Source of the DNA: Clostridia bacterium
Lineage (GTDB): Bacteria > Bacillota > Clostridia > Acetivibrionales > JAFADI01
Direction: 5' to 3'
NCBI GenBank assembly: GCA_026417615.1
Contig: JAOACY010000104.1
Coordinates: 37,892 to 101,891, forward strand
Length of the DNA stretch: 64,000 bases
Made by a program: the position numbers and the translations under genes. Below are positions 42,887 through 54,281 of this stretch, piece after piece; position 1 is the first letter of the stretch; every line of letters starts with the position of its first letter. The notes beneath the pieces were generated by a model. The model had not been told where the DNA came from. It did no database searches and saw only the letters and a program-made list of their open reading frames with translations.

Positions 42887-43729
42887 TTAAAGCATTGAAT
42901 GTACAAGCAGCTGGGCATAGGCATGCTGAGGGTCTTCCAGCACCTGATCCGTCAATCCTTTTTCTACTATCCTTCCATTCTTCAGTACGATTGTCCTGTT
43001 TGTAAGAAGTCTTATAACACCAAGGTCATGTGATACCACTATCATGGATATGTTTAAATCCTGCTGCAGGCTTTTTATAAGATCCAGTACCTTTGCCTGA
43101 ACGGAAACATCAAGGCCTGTGGTTACTTCATCCAGAAGGAGAAGCGGAGGATTGTTGGCCAGGGCCTTTGCAATCTGAACCCTTTGCTGCATGCCTCCAC
43201 TGAGTCTCTTAGGCATTTCATCCATATAGTAAAGAGGTATCTCTGTTTTACCCAGAAGTTCTTTTCCCCTTGCCCTTATGGATTCAAAATGAAACATATC
43301 TGCCGAAAGCAGCTTTTCTGCAATGTTTCCTCCGCTGGTAACATTAAGTCTCAAACCTCTCACGGAATTCTGATATACCATGCCCATCATATGGTTTCTG
43401 ATAAATCTCTTTTTGCTTTCTGGAGCTTTCAGGATATTCGAAAGTCCATTATCAAAGCAGCACAGGTAAGCTTCGCCATGTGAAGCCTCCTGGTCAAAGT
43501 AAAGGCACTGCACCAGACTGCTTTTCCCAGAGCCGCTTTCTCCCACTATCCCAAGGATTTCTCCCTGGTAAAGTTCGAAGCTTATGTCCTGCAAAGCCAC
43601 AACTGTTCCGCACTTTGGGCAAACATTACTGTTATGCTCAGGCCCAGTGAGCTTTTCACATTGACTGCAGCCTTTTCCGAATTTCTTGCTGAGATTGTTC
43701 ACCTTTAAGATTAATTTATCACAATCCAT
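42887..43729 (-). CDS. phnK: C-P lyase ATP-binding protein PhnK
   Basis: GIVGESGSGKS, SGGNIAEKL, SGGMQQRVQIA, DEVTTGLDVSVQA and GLTDQVLEDPQH.Y.QLLV. Confidence 0.95.
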   Translation of the reverse strand: MDCDKLILKVNNLSKKFGKGCSQCEKLTGPEHNSNVCPKCGTVVALQDISFELYQGEILGIVGESGSGKSSLVQCLYFDQEASHGEAYLCCFDNGLSNILKAPESKKRFIRNHMMGMVYQNSVRGLRLNVTSGGNIAEKLLSADMFHFESIRARGKELLGKTEIPLYYMDEMPKRLSGGMQQRVQIAKALANNPPLLLLDEVTTGLDVSVQAKVLDLIKSLQQDLNISMIVVSHDLGVIRLLTNRTIVLKNGRIVEKGLTDQVLEDPQHAYAQLLVHSML

Positions 43730-44570
43730 TTCTTTCCAAACCCCCAAGCCGGCTGTCACAGTATCCTGTGTCAGAACACACATGATACTTGCAGCCTGTT
43801 TCTTCATCGTATATTTCATCCAGATAAGCATCAACTGCTCCGCACCTGCAGCAGCAAAGCCCCTCAAAGCTTTCCACCTCAAATGGCTTGTCGGCAAACT
43901 GCAATGGCTCAACATCAGTGTAAGGAGGCACAGCGTATATACGTTTTTCCCTGCCGGCTCCAAAAAGATACAGGCACTCTGACTGGTGCAGCTTATAGAT
44001 ATCCCATTTTGGAATAGGTGAAGGGGACATAACATAGTGTCCGTTAACCTTACATGGGTAGCTTGCTCCAATTGATATGGAACCCCATTTCACAATATCC
44101 TCATACAGTGTAACCCACAGTCGGCTGTAATCCTTCTCCGAATGCATCCTTCTCGTTTCCGCTTCACTGGGCTCAACCAATCTCAAGGGTTCTGGAAGTG
44201 GTACCTGGAATACTAAAATCTGCCCTTCTTTCATGGGCACTTCAGGTATCCTGTGCCTTGTCTGAATTATTGTTGCCTTATGTGTCTCAAAAGTAGTTCT
44301 TACACCTGTGGTTTTAGAAATAAGCTTTCTTAGGTTTACTGCGTTAACGCTTCCGTCGCATCCCTGGTCTATTACTTTAAGCACATCTTCGGGGCCTATT
44401 ATTGCCATTGTTATCTGCAGCCCCCCAGTCCCCCAGCCCCTGGCGATAGGCAGCTCTCTTGATGCAAATGGCACCTGATGTCCTGGAATAGCAATTGCCT
44501 TCAGCAGCTTCCTCCGTATTTCCTTTTTGGCATTTTCGTCTATGAAAGCAAAATTATACTCAAAGGTCAT
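43719..44570 (-). CDS. phnJ: C-P lyase radical SAM subunit PhnJ
   Basis: YNFAF.DE, AIPG.QVPFASRE.P..RGWGTGG (glycyl radical Gly), GAGREKRIYAVPPYT and CxxC...CSDT.YC. Confidence 0.97.
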   Translation of the reverse strand: MTFEYNFAFIDENAKKEIRRKLLKAIAIPGHQVPFASRELPIARGWGTGGLQITMAIIGPEDVLKVIDQGCDGSVNAVNLRKLISKTTGVRTTFETHKATIIQTRHRIPEVPMKEGQILVFQVPLPEPLRLVEPSEAETRRMHSEKDYSRLWVTLYEDIVKWGSISIGASYPCKVNGHYVMSPSPIPKWDIYKLHQSECLYLFGAGREKRIYAVPPYTDVEPLQFADKPFEVESFEGLCCCRCGAVDAYLDEIYDEETGCKYHVCSDTGYCDSRLGGLERNGL

Positions 44571-45684
44571 TAATGTTCTCCCCTGTCTTAACTTCTTTTT
44601 TGGATTTTTTCTCCTGGGTTGCTCTTAGCCTGTCAAGATCCGATTGAAAGGTAATATAGTGGGGAAGCTTGAAATGTGCACAAAAGCCTGATGACTCAAT
44701 CCCATCGGTATGCATCAGGACGAATTCCTGATCCTGAGCGGGTGCATCAGCCTTTTCCTCCTTCATAGTCCTGTCCAGCACTGCCATTGAAATTGCTTTG
44801 ACTTCATTGCACCCAAAACAGCATCCGTAACCCAACGTAAAATAAGGCTTCTCATCCTGTCCGCAAGACTCAAACTTTGCAAGTATTTCCGCTTCAGTCA
44901 CTTGTATTGAACCTATTGTAACAGTTTCATTCTCTCTGAACGGATGAGGAATGCGCACCGGAACATGTCCGACTCTTAGCTCTGCAATTGTCGGGTGGAT
45001 GCTGCCATAACCCCTCATACTGCTGTATGCCAGGGCGAGCACTCCTCCCGTCTCGCTTCTGGAAAGCATTTGAAGGCTTGAGCTTCTATCTGCGGGAAAT
45101 GCTACAGATTCCTTCGTGATATCCGCCGCAGCTTCCTCCGTCTCTCTAGCCGCCTCTTTCACAAGGCCCTGGCTCTTTAATATGTCAACAACCTTAACAA
45201 AGCCTTTTTCTCCAATGGGCTTAGGTTTTAATTCCGCTTCATAGTCAGACAGAGCCTTGTGCATTGCTTCCTCGTCTTCCTCAACGAGCGAAAAATCCAG
45301 CATGCGCTGTTTGTAATCCTGGGTGGGGCCCAGTATTTGCCCCCCCGGAATATCTTTAAAAGCAGAGGAAATTCTTCTTGTAATTCTTTGTTCCTGCATA
45401 TTGAGAGGCAATGTGTCAACAATTCTTTTCAAGGTTGACCTGTAAGCTCTGATATAGAAAGCCGCCTCCAGAGGATCCCCTTCAGATTGCTTAATTGCAA
45501 GAGCTGCATGAAAAGGAGAATAAAGGCTGCCCTCCCCCATGACACGGTCAACCAAAAAACGCAGCTGGTCTTGAATCTGTTTTACCGTCAATGGCAGGCT
45601 TTTTCCTTTCAGCCTCAGATAGTTTGAAAGCTTTTCTGAGTTTTCTATGGCGTCCGTTCCGCCTTGAACCGCTACATAGCCCAT
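44560..45684 (-). CDS. phnI: C-P lyase subunit PhnI
   Basis: YVAVQGG..AI, EGSLYS, RAYRSTL, RRISSAFKDIPGGQILGPT.DY and HFKLPHY.TFQS.L. Confidence 0.97.
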   Translation of the reverse strand: MGYVAVQGGTDAIENSEKLSNYLRLKGKSLPLTVKQIQDQLRFLVDRVMGEGSLYSPFHAALAIKQSEGDPLEAAFYIRAYRSTLKRIVDTLPLNMQEQRITRRISSAFKDIPGGQILGPTQDYKQRMLDFSLVEEDEEAMHKALSDYEAELKPKPIGEKGFVKVVDILKSQGLVKEAARETEEAAADITKESVAFPADRSSSLQMLSRSETGGVLALAYSSMRGYGSIHPTIAELRVGHVPVRIPHPFRENETVTIGSIQVTEAEILAKFESCGQDEKPYFTLGYGCCFGCNEVKAISMAVLDRTMKEEKADAPAQDQEFVLMHTDGIESSGFCAHFKLPHYITFQSDLDRLRATQEKKSKKEVKTGENINDL

Positions 45685-45687
45685 AAT

Positions 45688-46317
45688 TTATGCCACCTCC
45701 ACCTTCGATGTCCTCGGAATGCAAACAATATTGCCCGACCAGTCTATAAGCATAACATCAATACCTATTGGAAATTCTGAATTTATTTCGGGCAATGCTG
45801 TAAGATAATTCAAATCCAGTCCCTCTAAAGCAAAAAGGTTTTCTGATTTTACACCCGGTCCTTTTATTCTGACCCTCATACCATTCTCATCAACCCTGCC
45901 GTTAATTCCCGTATATATTCTTTCTACTGATATAATGGCAGTTGCGCTGTTCTCCGGAAATTCCGAAGTGCCTTTGTTTAACCTCTCATAAGCGCAGCTG
46001 TAATCATTTCCTTCAAACAGCACAAAATCAGCAGCTTCTTCCTTATCAAATCCAGCACCCGTATTAATTTCTATGTATCTTTTCCATTCGTCACTTTTTT
46101 TCGAAGAAATCCCAAACTTCACACAATTGTCGCATAATGTTTTCAATATTAGCAAAGAGTATGGGTTTAAGCCATCAGCCACCTCTTTAAAGCAATGCTC
46201 ACCCAGGTTCTTAATTCTGCCCGGGTAACTCATTGCTTCCATAATAACCCTGAATATTCTCTGAGAGTCAAACACCTCGTCAAAGCCTGCTTCTTTAACA
46301 ATCTGCTGCATTTTCAA
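45688..46317 (-). CDS. phnH: C-P lyase subunit PhnH
   Basis: SQ..FR..M.AMS.PG, TLCD, GT..FPE.SAT, GPGV, FP.GID and IPRT. Confidence 0.93.
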   Translation of the reverse strand: MKMQQIVKEAGFDEVFDSQRIFRVIMEAMSYPGRIKNLGEHCFKEVADGLNPYSLLILKTLCDNCVKFGISSKKSDEWKRYIEINTGAGFDKEEAADFVLFEGNDYSCAYERLNKGTSEFPENSATAIISVERIYTGINGRVDENGMRVRIKGPGVKSENLFALEGLDLNYLTALPEINSEFPIGIDVMLIDWSGNIVCIPRTSKVEVA

Positions 46318-46727
46318 CCCTTCTTTACATCAAAATTAACCCTGGTGGAAGCTACCCTTGCCGCTTCCTGTTCCCATAAGCTGTATAAAGCTTTCTCCAG
46401 GTCATCAATCATGGGCTTGATTTGGTCTGAAAGCTTATGACCGGATCCCAAAACCGCATCAACAACTGCTGCATAAAAAGCCCTCTCGGGCTCATATCCA
46501 AGCACGCACCCATATCCAAGATTTCTGTCAACCTCGACCTCACATTCCAGCACGAATGCCTCTCCCATGTAAAAAGGAGTACCCTCCACGGAATCCCTGT
46601 GTCTGACCATAACCATGGCAGGCGTAACATTTCGTATTATTTTTATCTGTGCATTTTGGGAAATGTGATCAAATATCTTTTTGAGTCCTTCCATGCTGCC
46701 TTCTGCCACTACTTGTGAATAATGCAT
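46314..46727 (-). CDS. phnG: C-P lyase subunit PhnG
   Basis: MV..RDSV.G.PFYMGE..V.EC.V, GYG.VLG, A.VDA and STRVNF. Confidence 0.92.
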   Translation of the reverse strand: MHYSQVVAEGSMEGLKKIFDHISQNAQIKIIRNVTPAMVMVRHRDSVEGTPFYMGEAFVLECEVEVDRNLGYGCVLGYEPERAFYAAVVDAVLGSGHKLSDQIKPMIDDLEKALYSLWEQEAARVASTRVNFDVKKG

Positions 46728-46800
46728 ATGTGCCTCCCTCCGGGTCACTTCATTTTTATCCTGCTTTCAGGAACAGCTGAACTGCTCCATTTCTTAAAAC

Positions 46801-47550
46801 TCAGCGCAAAAGTCCCTTTTCTTCGTCGAAACGCACTGATACTTTGACTATATCCGACCTAAACTTGGATATGCACTGTTCAATCGGGACACCTGCCTGA
46901 TCAACCGCAATGCTTGTTACCTGAAGCAGCGGGGAGTTTAATCTTATGGATAGCAGCTTGCTTTCCTTTTTATCAGCCAGCGAGGCTTCATATACCGAGC
47001 TTATCCTTACAGGCTTGATACCGTATTCATTTTCAAAGGTTTTATACAAAGAAAGATATTTTACTATATGTAAATTAAGATCAGGCACACGTTTTTCAGG
47101 GATAAAGGAGCGGGTAAGGATTGCAGGTATATTATTGTAATGTCTTAAAAAATAAATCAACCAGACAACTTCACCCCTGTTCATGCCGAAAAGACTCACT
47201 TGCTCCTCTGTTGGATATACAGTCTGAATCTCCAGAATATTTACGCAAGGAATCATATTGTTCTCAATTATGGTATTCGAGTAGCTGGTATTCTTGTTTA
47301 TAGTAAGATTTATACAGTCAGTTTTAACAAAATAACCCTTTCTCCTTATTGTGTATACGTAGCCGTCAGCAATAAGCTTTTCAATCGCTCTTCTTACTGT
47401 AAATCTGTTTACACCCATTTTTTCAGACAAAGCCCTTTCCGAAGGCAGCTGCTGACTGGTGTCATATTCACCCTTTTCGATACTGTTCTTTATGAATTGA
47501 TAAACTTGATAATAACAAGGTATAGGACTATCCTTGTTTACAATATTCAT
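46801..47550 (-). CDS. phnF: GntR/HutC-family regulator PhnF
   Basis: wHTH LPSER.L....GVNR.TVRRA and C-terminal UTRA domain; first gene of the phn operon. Confidence 0.85.
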   Translation of the reverse strand: MNIVNKDSPIPCYYQVYQFIKNSIEKGEYDTSQQLPSERALSEKMGVNRFTVRRAIEKLIADGYVYTIRRKGYFVKTDCINLTINKNTSYSNTIIENNMIPCVNILEIQTVYPTEEQVSLFGMNRGEVVWLIYFLRHYNNIPAILTRSFIPEKRVPDLNLHIVKYLSLYKTFENEYGIKPVRISSVYEASLADKKESKLLSIRLNSPLLQVTSIAVDQAGVPIEQCISKFRSDIVKVSVRFDEEKGLLR

Positions 47551-47585
47551 TTTCTTTCTCCTCATAATTTATGAAACAAAAGGCC

Positions 47586-47750: not shown

Positions 47751-48905
47751 TTAATTTTTTTGTACTTCCCTTGAAATTTCATTTAATGCAGAAATGGTAA
47801 AGTCAATTTCCTCCACCGTATTAAAGCAGCCTACGCTTAGCCTGACAAGCCCGCACTTTAGCGTGCCAAGGCTTTTATGAGCCAGAGGAGCACAGTGCAA
47901 GCCAGCTCTTGTTGCAATGTGATATTTCCTGTCAAGCAGGCTGCTTATTTCATTAGAGTCCATATTTTTAAAACAAAGAGCCACAATGCCCGAATTCTTA
48001 TTGATATCACTTTTGCTGTAGAGCTTTGCTTCCTTTATATCCACGATACCTTCATGCAGCCTCTTAATAAGCTCAGACTTGTAATGCTTGATATTTTCAA
48101 TTCCGAAGCTTTTAATAAAGCTGGCGCCAAACCCTAAACCAACTATCCCGGGTGTGTTCAAAGTGCCGCTTTCCATGTAATCAGGCATAAATTCAGGCTG
48201 CAGGACACTTTCGGAGCTGCTTCCTGTTCCCCCCTGCATCAGACAGTTTATATGCACTCCCTCCCTGACGTACAGACCTCCTGTGCCCTGTGGCCCAAGC
48301 AAGCCCTTGTGGCCCGGGAAGGCAAGCATATCAATATTCATATCTTCTACATCAATTGTTACGCTGCCGGCTCCCTGGGATCCGTCTACCAGAAAGGTTA
48401 TGCCTTTATCCCTGGCAATTGCGCCTATTTCTTTTACAGGTAAAATGATTCCGTTTACATTTGATGATAAGGTAGCAGCAATAAGCTTTGTATTCGGCCT
48501 GATGCATCTGCCTATATCCTCGGGCTGTATCTCTCCGAAATCATTTCCTCGTACAATGGACAGCTCAACACCAAAGTCTCTTTCAAGGGTTTTTAAGGGT
48601 CTTATTACAGAGTTGTGCTCCATGCCGGTGGTTATGGCATGGTCTCCTGGCTTAAGACCCCCCTTGATTGCAATATTCAAAGCTTCTGTCGCATTTTTGG
48701 TAAAAACAAGCTGCAAGGGATTACTAATATTAAACAGGCTGCTGATTGTGTCTCTTGCTTGCATAACAGCCCTTCCCGCTTCAATGGACATGGCGTGTCC
48801 GCTTCTGCCGGGGTTGGCACAGTACTCCCGCATGCATCTTGCTATTTCTTCATAGACCTTTTCAGGCTTTGGAAATGATGTTGCGGCATTATCAAGATAT
48901 ATCAT
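47751..48905 (-). CDS. Cysteine desulfurase (class V aminotransferase)
   Basis: IYLDNAATSFPKP, NPGRSGH, EHNSV, PGHKGLLGPQGTG and R.GLHCAP. Confidence 0.92.
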   Translation of the reverse strand: MIYLDNAATSFPKPEKVYEEIARCMREYCANPGRSGHAMSIEAGRAVMQARDTISSLFNISNPLQLVFTKNATEALNIAIKGGLKPGDHAITTGMEHNSVIRPLKTLERDFGVELSIVRGNDFGEIQPEDIGRCIRPNTKLIAATLSSNVNGIILPVKEIGAIARDKGITFLVDGSQGAGSVTIDVEDMNIDMLAFPGHKGLLGPQGTGGLYVREGVHINCLMQGGTGSSSESVLQPEFMPDYMESGTLNTPGIVGLGFGASFIKSFGIENIKHYKSELIKRLHEGIVDIKEAKLYSKSDINKNSGIVALCFKNMDSNEISSLLDRKYHIATRAGLHCAPLAHKSLGTLKCGLVRLSVGCFNTVEEIDFTISALNEISREVQKN

Positions 48906-48977
48906 CCTGGCCTCCACAATGTATCTTAAAATATGGGCTTTTATATTATTTTATGTTTGGGAGGCAGGAAATGATTA

Positions 48978-49505
48978 TTATTCTTTTATTGCTTTACCCA
49001 GAGCTTTTATTATTAAAAGTGCAACAGCTCCGCCAAGGAGTGCCGTCCAAAGCTGCGCAACCCCGAAAAGAACACCTAGAGTCTTTGCCAGTTGGGGCTT
49101 TACCGTAACAACCCCAAGGAATATATTAATTCCGACAAAGAGGACTGCAAATTTAGTTATTGCACCGGCAGCAACCCCGAGTATCTGATTTTTATTTTTT
49201 AACAGGTAAAACAGAACGACTAGAACCGCATTGCCAAGAGCTATAACCGGTGCAAATGAAAGCAGCACAGTTGCGATTGGAGCATGATTGTTAATAAGGG
49301 ATGTAAAGGGTGATAGTACCGCTATCAAAACACCGCCCCAAAGCCCCGCAAATGCAGCAGCCACTATAAGGCAGGCGTTTACCAGTGGTCCGACGATAAA
49401 GTTGCTTACACCGGGAGGAAGCATCCTTCCTATCATCTGTACAGAAACTACTAAAGCCAGCAGTATTGCCGTTCTTGTTATAAATCTTACCTTTGAATTT
49501 TTCAT
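48978..49505 (-). CDS. ECF transporter S component (substrate unknown)
   Basis: About 175 aa, very hydrophobic, 'TRTA.LLAL', 'G.LVNA.L', 'GNA.LV' and 'QL.TAL.GG'. Confidence 0.8.
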   Translation of the reverse strand: MKNSKVRFITRTAILLALVVSVQMIGRMLPPGVSNFIVGPLVNACLIVAAAFAGLWGGVLIAVLSPFTSLINNHAPIATVLLSFAPVIALGNAVLVVLFYLLKNKNQILGVAAGAITKFAVLFVGINIFLGVVTVKPQLAKTLGVLFGVAQLWTALLGGAVALLIIKALGKAIKE

Positions 49506-49540
49506 ACACAATACCTCCGCAAATAAATTTTTAACCAATT

Positions 49541-49683
49541 AAACTAAAAACTCCCCTCGACACAAGCTTTCAGCACCAGGTCAAGAAGAGTTCGCATATG
49601 TATTTCTCATAACATTCTCCCCCTTCGCATTGGAACCTACCTTCACGTCAGGCCTTTTATTCAACTTCCTCGAGGAAGGAGAA
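49541..49683 (-). ncRNA. Candidate cis-regulatory attenuator/riboswitch leader of the ECF-S gene
   Basis: 13-bp P1 (49683-49671 with 49627-49615) enclosing AGGAAG...CCTGAC-GTGAAG-GTAGG, then a 13-bp terminator (49592-49549) with a U-tract; P1 3' strand can pair with the terminator 5' strand. Confidence 0.6.
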
Positions 49684-49720
49684 TTCCCGCCTCTCAGAAA
49701 ATTAGAAAAATTTATTTTTT

Positions 49721-49760
49721 ATTCCGCTGCAAAAACAGCTTTTCTTGAAAGCAGTGGAAT
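49721..49760. repeat. Minimal 40-bp derivative of the 195-bp element
   Basis: CTGCAAAAACAGCTTTTCTTGAAA is identical to 7117-7140; ends ATTCCGCTGC/GCAGTGGAAT are inverted. Confidence 0.85.
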
Positions 49761-49766
49761 CTTTTT

Positions 49767-50018
49767 TTAGCACATAAGAGCTACTTTTACTTTAATACCT
49801 TTAATATTGCCCAGCTTTCCTGTCAAAGCCCCTATTTCATCATTGGTGCCGTCTGCTATTACCGACATGACCGAAAGCTCTCTTTCCTTATATGGTATAC
49901 CCATTCTCCCCACTATTATATTGCCGTAATTACTTAGTATTTCATTGACTTTTTTGGCTGCTTCTTCCCTGTTGCCCACAATTATTCCTATGACGGCAAC
50001 CCTGTTTTCCTTTTCCAT
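49767..50018 (-). CDS. TM1266 family putative iron-only hydrogenase system regulator (ACT/NikR-C-like)
   Basis: RVAVIGIIV, VN.ILS.Y..IIVGRMGIPY, 'I.ALTGKLG...G..VK'. Preceded by a TTTACA-17-TATTAT promoter (50084-50056). Confidence 0.88.
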   Translation of the reverse strand: MEKENRVAVIGIIVGNREEAAKKVNEILSNYGNIIVGRMGIPYKERELSVMSVIADGTNDEIGALTGKLGNIKGIKVKVALMC

Positions 50019-50115
50019 AGACCACCTGTGTTATTTTTTTAACTATTATATGTCTATAATATACCAATAATTTTTCTGTGTAAACAGATTTTTGTTCAAC
50101 GAATACGAGACCTAT

Positions 50116-50155: not shown

Positions 50156-50164
50156 ACTTTGTTC

Positions 50165-50596
50165 GAGTAAACCTGTAAGCCGGGTTCTGTATTAAACAAT
50201 CATCTATCTAGGCCATGCATTTCTGCAAGGCTCAAGCCACCTTCACGGAACTGGCGGGCAGCCTTAACGTCCCAATCGAGGTGTTGCTCCGGGTGGGGTT
50301 TACATAGACCGGCAAGTCGCCATGCCGCTGGTGAGCTCTTACCTCACCTTTCCACCCTTACAAACCAGAGACTAGACACTAGAGACCAGGCACCAGATTT
50401 AAGAACGGCCATAAAGCCCTTCCAGCTTTCTAGTATCTAGTTTCTAGCATCTAGTTTCTAGTATGCGGTATATCTCTGTTGCACTTTCCTTGAAGTCGCC
50501 TTCACCGGGAGTTACCCGGCACCCTTGCCCTATGGAGCCCGGACTTTCCTCATGTGCGGCCTTGCGGCGCTGCACACGCGATTGTCTGGTTTACTC
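50165..50596 (-). ncRNA. rnpB: RNase P RNA, type A
   Basis: Minus strand has GAGGAAAGTCCGGGC, GGAAAGTGCAACAG, TAAACCCCAC..GGAGCAA and ACAGAACCCGGCTTA; P1 GAGTAAACC/GGTTTACTC. Confidence 0.96.
50364..50462. repeat. Inverted heptamer tandem repeats (5+5 units) within rnpB helix P12
   Basis: ACCAGAG ACTAGAC ACTAGAG ACCAGGC ACCAGAT ... TTCTAGT ATCTAGT TTCTAGC ATCTAGT TTCTAGT. Confidence 0.85.
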
Positions 50597-50623
50597 AACA
50601 CTATTTTTCAGATAACAATTATG

Positions 50624-52806: not shown

Positions 52807-52831
52807 AAAGGAGTTCAATTGAACTCCTTTT
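52806..52831. terminator. Perfect 26-bp palindrome, bidirectional terminator at the left boundary of the element
   Basis: AAAAGGAGTTCAATTGAACTCCTTTT. Confidence 0.75.
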
Positions 52832-54281
52832 ATGGTGGAGTGGATAAGTCTAAATCCGAAACAGTTATAGTGTTGTTATCACCGCTGTAATTGTAGGTTA
52901 TAACAACCTTATCCTCATACACGAACACAGCATTTATAAATGTGTCTATGATTTGTTGGCAATATTTTTCATCATCAATAGAGCCGCCTTTGAAGCTGGA
53001 GAGGAAAAATATAATTTGCTCTTTCGTTATGAGTTTTTGGGAGATATTTTCTTTAGCAATCTCAATTTCAAGTTGTTGTTTCTGCTCCTCCAGCTCAACA
53101 AGACGTTTTTTCGTGCTTTCGGTAATAATGCCCTGTTCAATAGCGGTAACAACATTCTTTACTGAACGCTCAACCTCAATCAATGTACTCTGCAAGTATT
53201 TTAGAGTGTTATTATTGGACAACTCACGCTCTTGCACTTCTATAGCCTTTCCAGCTATATACTCTATTACATCATCTTTCAATATTTCATTGATTGTATG
53301 AAGCACTACAAGCCGCTCAATCCAATCTTTTTTAATATTAGATTTATTGCAAGCCTTTTCTTTTTTTCTCTTAGTACATTTGTAATAGTGATATTTACCG
53401 CCATGCCTACCAGTACCACTCTCACCAACCATATTAGAGCCGCACTCACCGCAAAATAATTTTGTTGATAACATATAATTTACATTTGCTTTAGCTCTTG
53501 CAGGAGCTTTTTTATTTTTGTCCATCTTCTCACCTACACTATAGAATAATTCTTTATCAATAATAGCGGGTACGCCATCGGGAATGGCTATATCTCCAGA
53601 CTTGTAAACGCCAATATATTTTTCATTCCTCAATATGGTATGTAGGCTATTTTTATTAAAAGAAACGCCACGAGAAGTTTTTAGCCCTTGTCTATTCAAT
53701 GTATCGCAAATTTGAGTTACTGTCTTACCTTCATTATACATTTTATATATCTGAATGACTATAGGAGCGGTTTGCTCGTCAATTATAAAATGCAGATCCG
53801 CATCAACTTTATAGCCGAGCGGCAAGTTACCACCTGTAGCCTTACATTTTAAGGCATTTTCCCTCATTCCTCGCTTTATTTTCAAAGACAATTCGGCACT
53901 ATAATACTCTGCCATGCCCTCTAACATACTCTCCAGAATAATACTCTCTGGTGTACCGTTCAAGTTTTCCATTGCTGAAAGGACTTTTACGCCATTCTTT
54001 TTTAGCTTCTGCTTATTAACGGCACTATCATAGCGGTTACGAGAGAAGCGATCCAGACGATACACAATAACCGCTTCAAATTGCTTTTTAGCACTATCAA
54101 TAAGCATTTGTTGAAATGCTGGGCGGTTATCTGTTTTGCCACTTATTGCTCTATCTATATAAGTATCAATTATAGTTATTTCGTTAGCTTCTGCAAACGA
54201 ATAGCATTCCCTTAATTGCCCTTCTATACTCTGCTCTGTTTGCCTATCGCTGGAGTATCGGGCATATATTACCGCCCTCAT
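52830..54281 (-). CDS. Large serine recombinase (integrase)
   Basis: AVIYARYSS..Q...SIEGQ, D.AISG....RP.FQ, LDRFSR, recombinase domain, Zn ribbon LFCGECG...YYKC...C and coiled coil. Confidence 0.95.
   Translation of the reverse strand: MRAVIYARYSSDRQTEQSIEGQLRECYSFAEANEITIIDTYIDRAISGKTDNRPAFQQMLIDSAKKQFEAVIVYRLDRFSRNRYDSAVNKQKLKKNGVKVLSAMENLNGTPESIILESMLEGMAEYYSAELSLKIKRGMRENALKCKATGGNLPLGYKVDADLHFIIDEQTAPIVIQIYKMYNEGKTVTQICDTLNRQGLKTSRGVSFNKNSLHTILRNEKYIGVYKSGDIAIPDGVPAIIDKELFYSVGEKMDKNKKAPARAKANVNYMLSTKLFCGECGSNMVGESGTGRHGGKYHYYKCTKRKKEKACNKSNIKKDWIERLVVLHTINEILKDDVIEYIAGKAIEVQERELSNNNTLKYLQSTLIEVERSVKNVVTAIEQGIITESTKKRLVELEEQKQQLEIEIAKENISQKLITKEQIIFFLSSFKGGSIDDEKYCQQIIDTFINAVFVYEDKVVITYNYSGDNNTITVSDLDLSTPP

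Follow-up and report, generated by a model that had tools for sequence, protein, structure and literature searches.

HutP of the Bacillus subtilis hut operon is an oligomeric, ligand-binding RNA-binding protein without a classical RNA-binding domain. It recognises UAG triplet repeats, and its binding prevents termination. PyrR of the pyr operon, an enzyme homologue, binds to a hairpin that competes with the antiterminator and causes termination; there are several PyrR sites per operon, before and after the regulator gene. Ribosomal-protein leaders are further examples of a regulator gene with an RNA operator. In this study, we analysed a leader RNA of approximately 260 nucleotides (nt) in a 64,000-nt stretch of contig JAOACY010000104.1 from a Clostridia bacterium (the window, meaning the whole stretch, to which all coordinates refer). 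The leader lies between a gene of the TM1266 family and the genes of an energy-coupling factor (ECF) transporter S-component (ECF-S) and a cysteine desulfurase. We give a probability of roughly 55% to the proposal, built on sequence comparison, that this leader is a TM1266-dependent transcription attenuator of the HutP/PyrR kind in the [FeFe]-hydrogenase maturation regulon, with TM1266 as the putative effector.

The hut operon and the window share the order of promoter, small regulator gene, terminator-containing leader and structural genes. They differ in that TM1266 binding would promote termination and that its site would consist of purine-loop hairpins. In addition, a leader open reading frame (ORF) overlaps the terminator here, and the HutP family is not among the Pfam matches of the TM1266 protein. 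The pyr operon is resembled by the arrangement TM1266, RNA, ECF-S, RNA, hydG at three related loci (L002, L003 and L015) and by the autoregulatory layouts of two sister forms of the RNA (variants 2a and 2b, the window's form being variant 1), whereas the two systems have neither protein family, RNA motif nor regulated pathway in common. A short ORF with its own Shine-Dalgarno sequence that ends in the terminator/antiterminator region is also known from trp-type leaders, TnaC and the antibiotic-responsive leaders of Firmicutes. Unlike these ribosome-mediated attenuators, the leader described here has no run of regulatory codons, its Shine-Dalgarno sequence lies within a conserved structured domain, and its sister variants appear to work without the ORF.

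The label 'putative iron-only hydrogenase system regulator' was given to TM1266 solely on the basis of its neighbouring genes, and we know of no mechanism or target for it. No literature on a hyd or TM1266 leader was found in full text, the supplements of large motif-discovery papers being outside view. The main texts of three GC-IGR (intergenic region) discovery papers contained 0 occurrences of 'hydrogenase', and their supplementary tables could list such a motif. New in this study are a layout in which TM1266 precedes the leader, a short ORF within the leader, a putative target operon of ECF-S and desulfurase genes, and the genome-wide adjacency counts.

Anatomy and conservation of the leader

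The gene order in the window is RNase P RNA, terminator, promoter-like site, TM1266 gene, leader, ECF-S gene and cysteine desulfurase gene. All features of the operon lie on the minus strand and are listed below in the direction of transcription.

50056..50084, minus strand: Sigma-70-like promoter TTTACA-17-TATTAT, 5′ of the TM1266 gene (10 of 12 consensus positions; a consensus match only)
49767..50018, minus strand: TM1266-family gene, 83 amino acids, proposed trans-acting factor (PF21699, TIGR03959)
49721..49761, minus strand: hairpin directly 3′ of the TM1266 stop codon, AUUCCACUGC...GCAGCGGAAU (sequence and fold; apparently window-specific)
49667..49698, minus strand: module A hairpin, UCU-GA-GAGG-CG-GGA-(AUUC)-UCC-UU-CCUC-GA-GGA, with a tandem G.A internal loop near its base (alignment A4)
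49621..49652, minus strand: module B, CCU-GA-CGUG-AA-GG-(UAGGUU)-CC-AA-UGCG-AA-GGG, with two tandem purine loops; its 3′ strand begins the Shine-Dalgarno/antiterminator strand
49617..49623, minus strand: Shine-Dalgarno-like GGGGGAG of the leader ORF, which is also the 5′ strand of the antiterminator (start codon spacing; pairing with the terminator arm)
49581..49610, minus strand: leader ORF AUG AGA AAU ACA UAU GCG AAC UCU UCU UGA (MRNTYANSS-stop), whose stop codon is inside the terminator 5′ arm
49541..49592, minus strand: intrinsic terminator, 5′ arm AACUCUUCUUGAC, 3′ arm GUCGAGGGGAGUU, followed by UUUUUAGUUU (−20.4 kcal/mol)
48978..49505, minus strand: ECF transporter S-component (ATG at 49505), first regulated gene of the proposed operon, substrate not assigned (PF12822, Atlas)
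47751..48905, minus strand: cysteine desulfurase family protein of the EF2568 type, proposed second regulated gene (TIGR01977, PF00266)

A preliminary description of this locus had reported the promoter, the TM1266 gene, a leader, a terminator with a U-run about 35 nt before the ECF-S gene, and the ECF-S and desulfurase genes, and all of these are present as it stated. The terminator ends 35 nt before the ECF-S ATG (49505), and its helix contains 5 pairs with compensatory changes (alignment A2). A simple terminator scan did not list it; its loop is long and partly structured, and its U-run is interrupted.

The upstream regions of ECF-S homologues were compared in 23 relatives. The shared leader motif was found only where a TM1266 gene is immediately upstream. 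With an E-value limit of 1e-5, a covariance model of the core and terminator (R1, built from 22 sequences) found matches in 42 of the order's 149 genomes, and 46 distinct copies were left after the removal of duplicates. The window's leader was the only strong match in its own assembly. The genomes compared are related and mostly metagenome bins, and the thresholds and variant definitions are our own. Named isolates that carry the element are Pseudobacteroides cellulosolvens ATCC 35603 and Thermoclostridium caenicola DSM 19027. A DNA pattern scan of the genome contigs gave 99 stretches, of which, by eye, about 16 are low-GC Clostridia copies with the full motif; the remaining stretches were judged by eye to be GC-rich chance matches.

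The helix of module A is 96% paired in alignment A4 (20 sequences), with 4 pairs changed on both sides. In a shuffle test, 0/500 randomised sets reached the observed values, and slid registers fell to 41–65% paired. The energy of module A in the window is −12.6 kcal/mol. The linker between modules A and B is variable: it has 14 nt in the window, whereas in other copies it can reach about 120 nt and frequently contains a hairpin of its own.

Module B is the invariant part of the leader. Its strands CCUGACG and CGAAGGG (the CCUGACG...CGAAGGGGG hairpin) are identical in 20/20 aligned sequences and for that reason carry no covariation information. They can close a helix around tandem G.A/A.A mismatches. 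The energy of module B is only −7.4 kcal/mol in the window, and its inner helix (AGAY/RUCU) is only 69% paired across the aligned relatives. From the window sequence and the sister variants 2a and 2b, in which the CUGA-helix-RAAGG unit recurs, we infer that module B (CUGA-CGUG-AAGG ... CCAA-UGCG-AAGG) is a two-fold pseudo-symmetric duplex with two purine loops.

The structural core had initially been placed elsewhere, in a helix P1 formed by UUCUCCUUCCUCG / CGAAGGGGGAGAA. P1 is real in the window, where it has 13 pairs and −17.1 kcal/mol and is used in the single-sequence minimum-energy fold. It is not conserved: an energy of −12 kcal/mol is attained in only 2/20 aligned relatives, and the 20 have a median of −7.2 kcal/mol. 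Comparatively, the 5′ strand of P1 belongs to the covarying module A hairpin as its 3′ strand. We treat P1 as a local coincidence of pyrimidine-rich and purine-rich strands. The hairpin directly after the TM1266 stop codon appears specific to the window: in relatives such as L002, only about 10 nt separate the stop codon from module A.

The earlier statement that no cobalamin, TPP, FMN, SAM, THF, Moco or T-box signature is recognisable in the leader agrees with a covariance-model check against Rfam 15, which gave no match for the leader at E up to 10. Likewise, 15 loci carrying variant 1, 2a or 2b leaders gave no Rfam match at E up to 0.1. The sole significant Rfam match in the region is the RNase P RNA upstream. 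A hammerhead reading, prompted by CUGA...GAA, was dropped: no hammerhead family appeared in the Rfam searches, and stems I/III were not evident in the alignments. A K-turn reading was also dropped, having no Rfam support and no 3-nt bulge. An RGGA/UCUY pseudoknot and the pairings UAAG/CUUA and UCGA/UCGA were inconsistent across sequences by eye and were replaced by the module A hairpin.

Alternative pairings and the leader ORF

The leader contains two alternative pairings of one strand. The preliminary description had proposed an antiterminator, and this pairing was recovered: the duplex AAGGGGGAG x CUCUUCUU has −8.9 kcal/mol in the window. In the nascent RNA without the terminator 3′ arm, the minimum-energy fold consists of module A together with GAAGGGGG paired with CUCUUCUU, which is the antiterminator. 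The terminator 5′ arm can pair with the GAAGGGGGA strand and holds the stop codon of the leader ORF. In window folds, and by inspection in variants 2a and 2b, the terminator and antiterminator exclude each other, and they have a strand in common with the putative regulatory site. In L005, L179, L182 and L184, changes in the Shine-Dalgarno strand go along with changes in the terminator arm. Since module B is weak (−7.4 kcal/mol) and the nascent RNA folds as the antiterminator, read-through would be the default, maintained by RNA pairing and the ribosome, and termination would need a stabilised module B.

These pairings bear on a simpler view, in which there is no switch: the terminator would just end the TM1266 transcript, the downstream genes would have their own promoter, and the conserved part would be a processing or stability element. 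A terminator of −20.4 kcal/mol is what this view expects, and yet we find it hardly credible. No promoter-like site was seen from the terminator to the ECF-S gene, a gap of merely 35 nt. Constitutive termination with a separate downstream promoter had been named at the outset as a refutation of attenuation, and a scan of the minus strand between the promoter at 50056..50084 and the ECF-S gene gave no other promoter-like site. Moreover, both the alternative pairing and the terminator 5′ arm are conserved, and in variants 2a and 2b the element stands between the promoter and the TM1266 gene itself.

The leader ORF was absent from the preliminary description. An ORF of 6–11 codons with its stop codon at the end of the terminator arm is present in 36/44 copies with a detected terminator, versus 4.1 expected from shuffled spacers. 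In these 36/44 copies the start codon lies 9–13 nt past AGGG, and the lengths of 6, 7, 8, 9, 10 and 11 codons are every one in frame. The ending (N/D/G)-Ser-Ser-stop occurs in 34/46 copies. The last Ser codon is UCC, UCU, UCA or UCG (L019 has UCA UCA), and the stop codon is UGA or UAA. A few copies have the divergent endings PFVT, WLFL and DVFT because their arm sequence or reading frame differs. The ORF is missing from the variant-1 copies L002a, L003a, L179 and L181–L184. The interior of the peptide is variable among copies and holds no run of regulatory codons. From this unconserved interior, the ORF, whose translation is predicted, is read as a probable means of placing a ribosome on the terminator arm and not as a sensor peptide.

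The opposite reading is purely ribosome-mediated attenuation, in which the leader peptide would be the sensor and the upstream hairpins would tune its translation. The signal would be the supply of Ser-tRNA at the UCU UCC codons or a small-molecule arrest at ...Ser-Ser-stop, and a stalled ribosome would cause read-through. TnaC is a known case of arrest at termination by a small molecule in the exit tunnel. The frequency of the ORF (36/44 copies against 4.1) speaks for this reading, as do the 34/46 endings (N/D/G)-S-S-stop with synonymous Ser codons and UGA or UAA. Serine is also the source of the H-cluster bridgehead (PMC8148037). Several observations make the peptide as sole sensor quite improbable. 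Variants 2a and 2b share the RNA unit and the terminator logic, and no comparable ORF was seen in them by eye (L196 only). Some variant-1 copies have no ORF, and others end in PFVT, WLFL or DVFT. There are only two Ser codons, and the conserved AACUCUUCCUGA nucleotides are also constrained by both helices. Finally, such a mechanism leaves the invariant upstream modules and the link to TM1266 unexplained.

Under the TM1266-dependent attenuator, transcription would start before the TM1266 gene and run into the leader, whose 3′ purine strand CGAAGGGGGAG would have two alternative fates. In the ON state, the purine strand would be free, pair with the pyrimidine-rich terminator 5′ arm as antiterminator and act as the Shine-Dalgarno sequence of the 9-codon ORF. 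Since the stop codon of the ORF sits in the terminator 5′ arm, the translating ribosome would also block the terminator hairpin, and the polymerase would read into the ECF-S and desulfurase genes. In the OFF state, the purine strand would be locked in the weak module B (CCUGA...GAAGGG), flanked by module A, and the terminator would form. A TM1266 oligomer, with or without a small ligand perhaps held at its ACT-like domain, may bind and stabilise modules A and B and thereby hide the Shine-Dalgarno/antiterminator strand. Conservation, alternative pairings, leader ORF and the exclusive link to TM1266 are observed; the binding of TM1266, its repressive direction and any ligand are the parts of this scheme that we infer.

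Genomic association with TM1266

The RNA has an exclusive genomic link to TM1266. A TM1266 gene lies at most 900 nt upstream of the RNA in 43/46 copies. In 41/42 genomes, the first R1 copy follows the TM1266 stop codon at a distance of 70–390 nt and in the same orientation. In the exception, G019, the RNA and the TM1266 gene lie on different contigs: the RNA stands before a radical-SAM gene, and the TM1266 gene is followed by a desulfurase gene without a leader.

A second TM1266 clade (about 50% identical) carries a related element upstream of TM1266 itself. The layout is a promoter, often a GCUGA-hairpin-AAAGC module, CUGA-helix-RAAGG(C), a terminator, TM1266, and hydG or hydE; the RAAGGC strand has its complement in the terminator's 5′ arm. 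The pattern YUGA-helix-RAAGR was found in 43/79 regions upstream of clade-2 TM1266 genes, versus 4/79 reverse complements and 5/79 coding regions. The shortest variant-2 forms are a nearly perfect direct repeat, CUGA-CAC-AAAG ... CUGA-GUG-AAAGG, which folds as a symmetric duplex. At some variant-2 loci (L195/L223), short tandem DNA repeats were observed between the leader terminator and the TM1266 start; one of them has a unit of about 30 nt, GGUAUUCUGUAUGGAUGUGAAGAGGAAUGG, present three times. A 40-nt repeat array lies at a contig end in L310.

Models of variant 2a (R2) and variant 2b (R3) were built from leaders adjoining TM1266 and then searched genome-wide. In variant 2a, pairing within the hairpin amounts to 99.3%, and 2 of its pairs show compensated changes. 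R2 gave 18 matches in the order, and 18/18 sit 27–320 nt upstream of a TM1266 gene. In a class-wide sample (151 genomes), R2 gave 7 matches; 5/5 new ones checked are directly upstream of TM1266, and a sixth precedes hydE-hydG at a contig start. R3 gave 41 matches in 40 genomes, 39/41 of them upstream of TM1266 (38 upstream of a listed TM1266 gene and 1 with the TM1266 N-terminus at a contig end). One further match was cut by a contig break, and the remaining one is a second, distant copy before hydE-hydG in the complete genome G004, which fits a factor acting in trans. Together, R1, R2 and R3 matched 99/149 genomes, all within the 125 with a TM1266 protein over the cut-off, and none of the 24 genomes without one (0/24).

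TM1266 is upstream of the RNA in variant 1 and downstream in variants 2a and 2b, and the other neighbouring gene varies. Two TM1266 paralogues occur together in four genomes: Thermoclostridium caenicola (L056, L250), G143, G208 and G212. Next to each paralogue is a separate copy of the RNA, and in every one of these genomes one copy belongs to the R1 type and the other to the R2 type. In G212, which belongs to another order, the R1-type RNA (C14:18968-19096, E 3.8e-10) is directly upstream of a TM1266 paralogue (C14:19098-19325). The variant-1 RNA therefore also occurs in an autoregulatory layout.

The partner gene of the RNA appears to be TM1266 on whichever side it stands, and the putatively regulated genes vary, which resembles the pattern of a regulator with its RNA operator. 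The constant TM1266 side, the twofold copies in one operon, the distant hyd copy and the paralogue–RNA pairs are the reasons for this comparison. The protein is firmly placed in its family by PF21699 (E 1.2e-33, 115.3 bits against a cut-off of 27) and by the equivalog TIGR03959 (114.5 bits against 60.8). A NikR_C match was weak (E 0.003, under its cut-off). The sole solved relative is PDB 2NZC (E 1.6e-15), which has 4 chains, and the two-fold pseudo-symmetric RNA unit suits such an oligomeric protein. The residues N25, L28, G37, R38, G40, P42, Y43 and K68 are invariant among 28 homologues. The best-kept residues make up two loops of the Gly-x-x-Gly pattern, GRMG (with Pro-Tyr after it) and GKLG, and both loops contain a basic residue. 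They may resemble the nucleic-acid-binding loops of the KH type.

The strongest competitor is an orphan riboswitch. The two purine-loop hairpins would be an aptamer for a metabolite or metal of H-cluster assembly (a HydG/HydE substrate, an intermediate or Fe2+), the ligand would lock the GAAGGGGGA strand and cause termination, and TM1266 would be merely a co-regulated or neighbouring small-molecule-binding protein. An invariant core with flanking covarying helices and a classic terminator/antiterminator expression platform are expected of a riboswitch, and tandem similar domains are known in riboswitches. Copies before hyd genes without an adjacent TM1266 gene (L184, the second copy of G004, and G281) also agree with it. 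The occurrence of the RNA is harder to reconcile with a small-molecule sensor: it is nearly always beside TM1266 (41/42, 23/23 and 39/41 matches), it is found in none of the 24 genomes without TM1266, and it stands on either side of TM1266 while the other neighbour varies. Each TM1266 gene has its own RNA in the four genomes with two paralogues, and the minimal unit, a short symmetric duplex, is more like a protein site. We consider the riboswitch less likely than the TM1266-dependent attenuator, but much of the evidence suits it as well, and its probability is still substantial. The two possibilities raised in the preliminary description, an OFF-type orphan riboswitch or an RNA target of TM1266, have thus fared differently: a conserved, uncatalogued OFF-type leader tied to TM1266 is present, and the genomic evidence favours the RNA as a TM1266 target, without deciding between the two.

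Several points weigh against TM1266 as the effector. Pfam yields only PF21699 and the weak NikR_C match for the protein, with no recognised RNA-binding domain, which equally counts for a riboswitch. Constant adjacency to one gene family is also known for some riboswitches. An ancestral operon of the order RNA-TM1266-hydG could have undergone a simple rearrangement that moved the RNA from the upstream to the downstream side of TM1266. The invariant core (CCUGACG / CGAAGGGGG) is equally typical of a ligand pocket. The antiterminator pairing has a mean of −9.4 kcal/mol across copies versus −7.2 kcal/mol for shuffled purine strands, so its energy is mostly explained by base composition alone and barely exceeds it. 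Of the 125 TM1266 genomes, 26 were unmatched by all three models, and the TM1266 loci L205, L209 and L211 show no leader beside the gene by eye. The relatedness of the compared genomes also means that the counts overstate independence.

In a wider form, TM1266-family proteins, with their ACT/NikR-C-like fold, may constitute a new class of attenuation proteins that bind RNA, a generalisation to which we give even odds. Their oligomers would clamp two-fold symmetric CUGA-helix-RAAGG hairpins with tandem purine mismatches and switch off hydG, hydE, hydF, the ECF importer and the desulfurase, probably in response to a ligand of H-cluster assembly. Paralogues and their RNAs would co-evolve as pairs, and one lineage would be wired through a leader ORF.

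Regulated genes and neighbouring features

The first gene after the RNA in the 46 copies is hydG (26), ECF-S (17) or another HydE/HydG-like radical-SAM gene (2), with no data for 1. Behind ECF-S comes the desulfurase gene or, in L002, L003 and L015, another copy of the RNA and then hydG. After hydG there are genes for a protein of about 440 amino acids and for a hydF-like GTPase, named by eye and tblastn. Judging from the first-gene counts, the RNA element would belong to the H-cluster maturation regulon. The original idea that the signal is whatever the S-component imports was not borne out: hydG directly follows 26/46 copies and ECF-S 17/46, and therefore what this transporter imports cannot serve as the general signal.

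The S-component of the window scored 30.2 bits against PF12822, slightly under the cut-off of 30.7, and was annotated as 'ECF transporter S component' in Atlas with a score of 0.94. Its fold is like that of riboflavin-type S-components (TM 0.75, structural similarity). No NCBIfam match was obtained for it, and no solved relative was found by sequence. An ECF-S gene of unassigned substrate is tied to TM1266, hydG and the EF2568-type desulfurase in the window and at 17 related loci. This genetic tie suggests that the S-component may import something needed for H-cluster maturation. The desulfurase matched TIGR01977 with 471.8 bits (cut-off 377) and SclA with 348.5 bits, under the cut-off of 525.

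A defined, widespread RNA nearly always beside a TM1266 gene makes a concrete and cheaply testable hypothesis of protein, RNA and ligand. If the TM1266-dependent attenuator is true, it would add a new fold to the few RNA-binding attenuation proteins, explain how Clostridia time H-cluster maturation and help to engineer cellulolytic thermophiles for hydrogen production. A riboswitch, by contrast, would represent a new class, with a ligand that signals the state of H-cluster assembly. On both readings, the maturation pathway gains two candidate members, the ECF S-component and the EF2568-type desulfurase.

A second hyd locus was observed in the same genome on contig C67 (L142:1490-1640, L213), with an aspA-like lyase, hydF, hydG and hydE. 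Ahead of these genes are a promoter-like site, a region with CCUUGA...CCUGAGAGAGAGG, and a terminator that is strong, GCCCUUUCCUU...AAGGAAGGG. This leader reached just 20 bits with R1, and a BLAST search of the order found no relatives for it. Possibly the same TM1266 protein acts on it in trans as a diverged target.

Upstream of the operon, two further features were annotated.

50597-50160, minus strand: RNase P RNA (RF00010, 275 bits, class A)
50153-50121, minus strand: terminator of the RNase P RNA (terminator scan)

The RNase P RNA (window 50160-50597) is 438 nt long, compared with the 367 positions of the model. An insertion of about 90 nt in one model helix consists of repeated CUAGAAAC / CUAGAUAC-like units and their complements. 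Downstream of the operon, a GntR/UTRA regulator gene is located at 46801-47565 (minus strand), and the ORFs beyond it (window 42887-47565, minus strand) were named by eye from their translations as phosphonate C-P lyase (phn)-like. A 483-amino-acid ORF at 52830-54281 (minus strand) has an N-terminus that resembles a large serine recombinase by eye, which hints at the border of a mobile element or prophage a few kb away.

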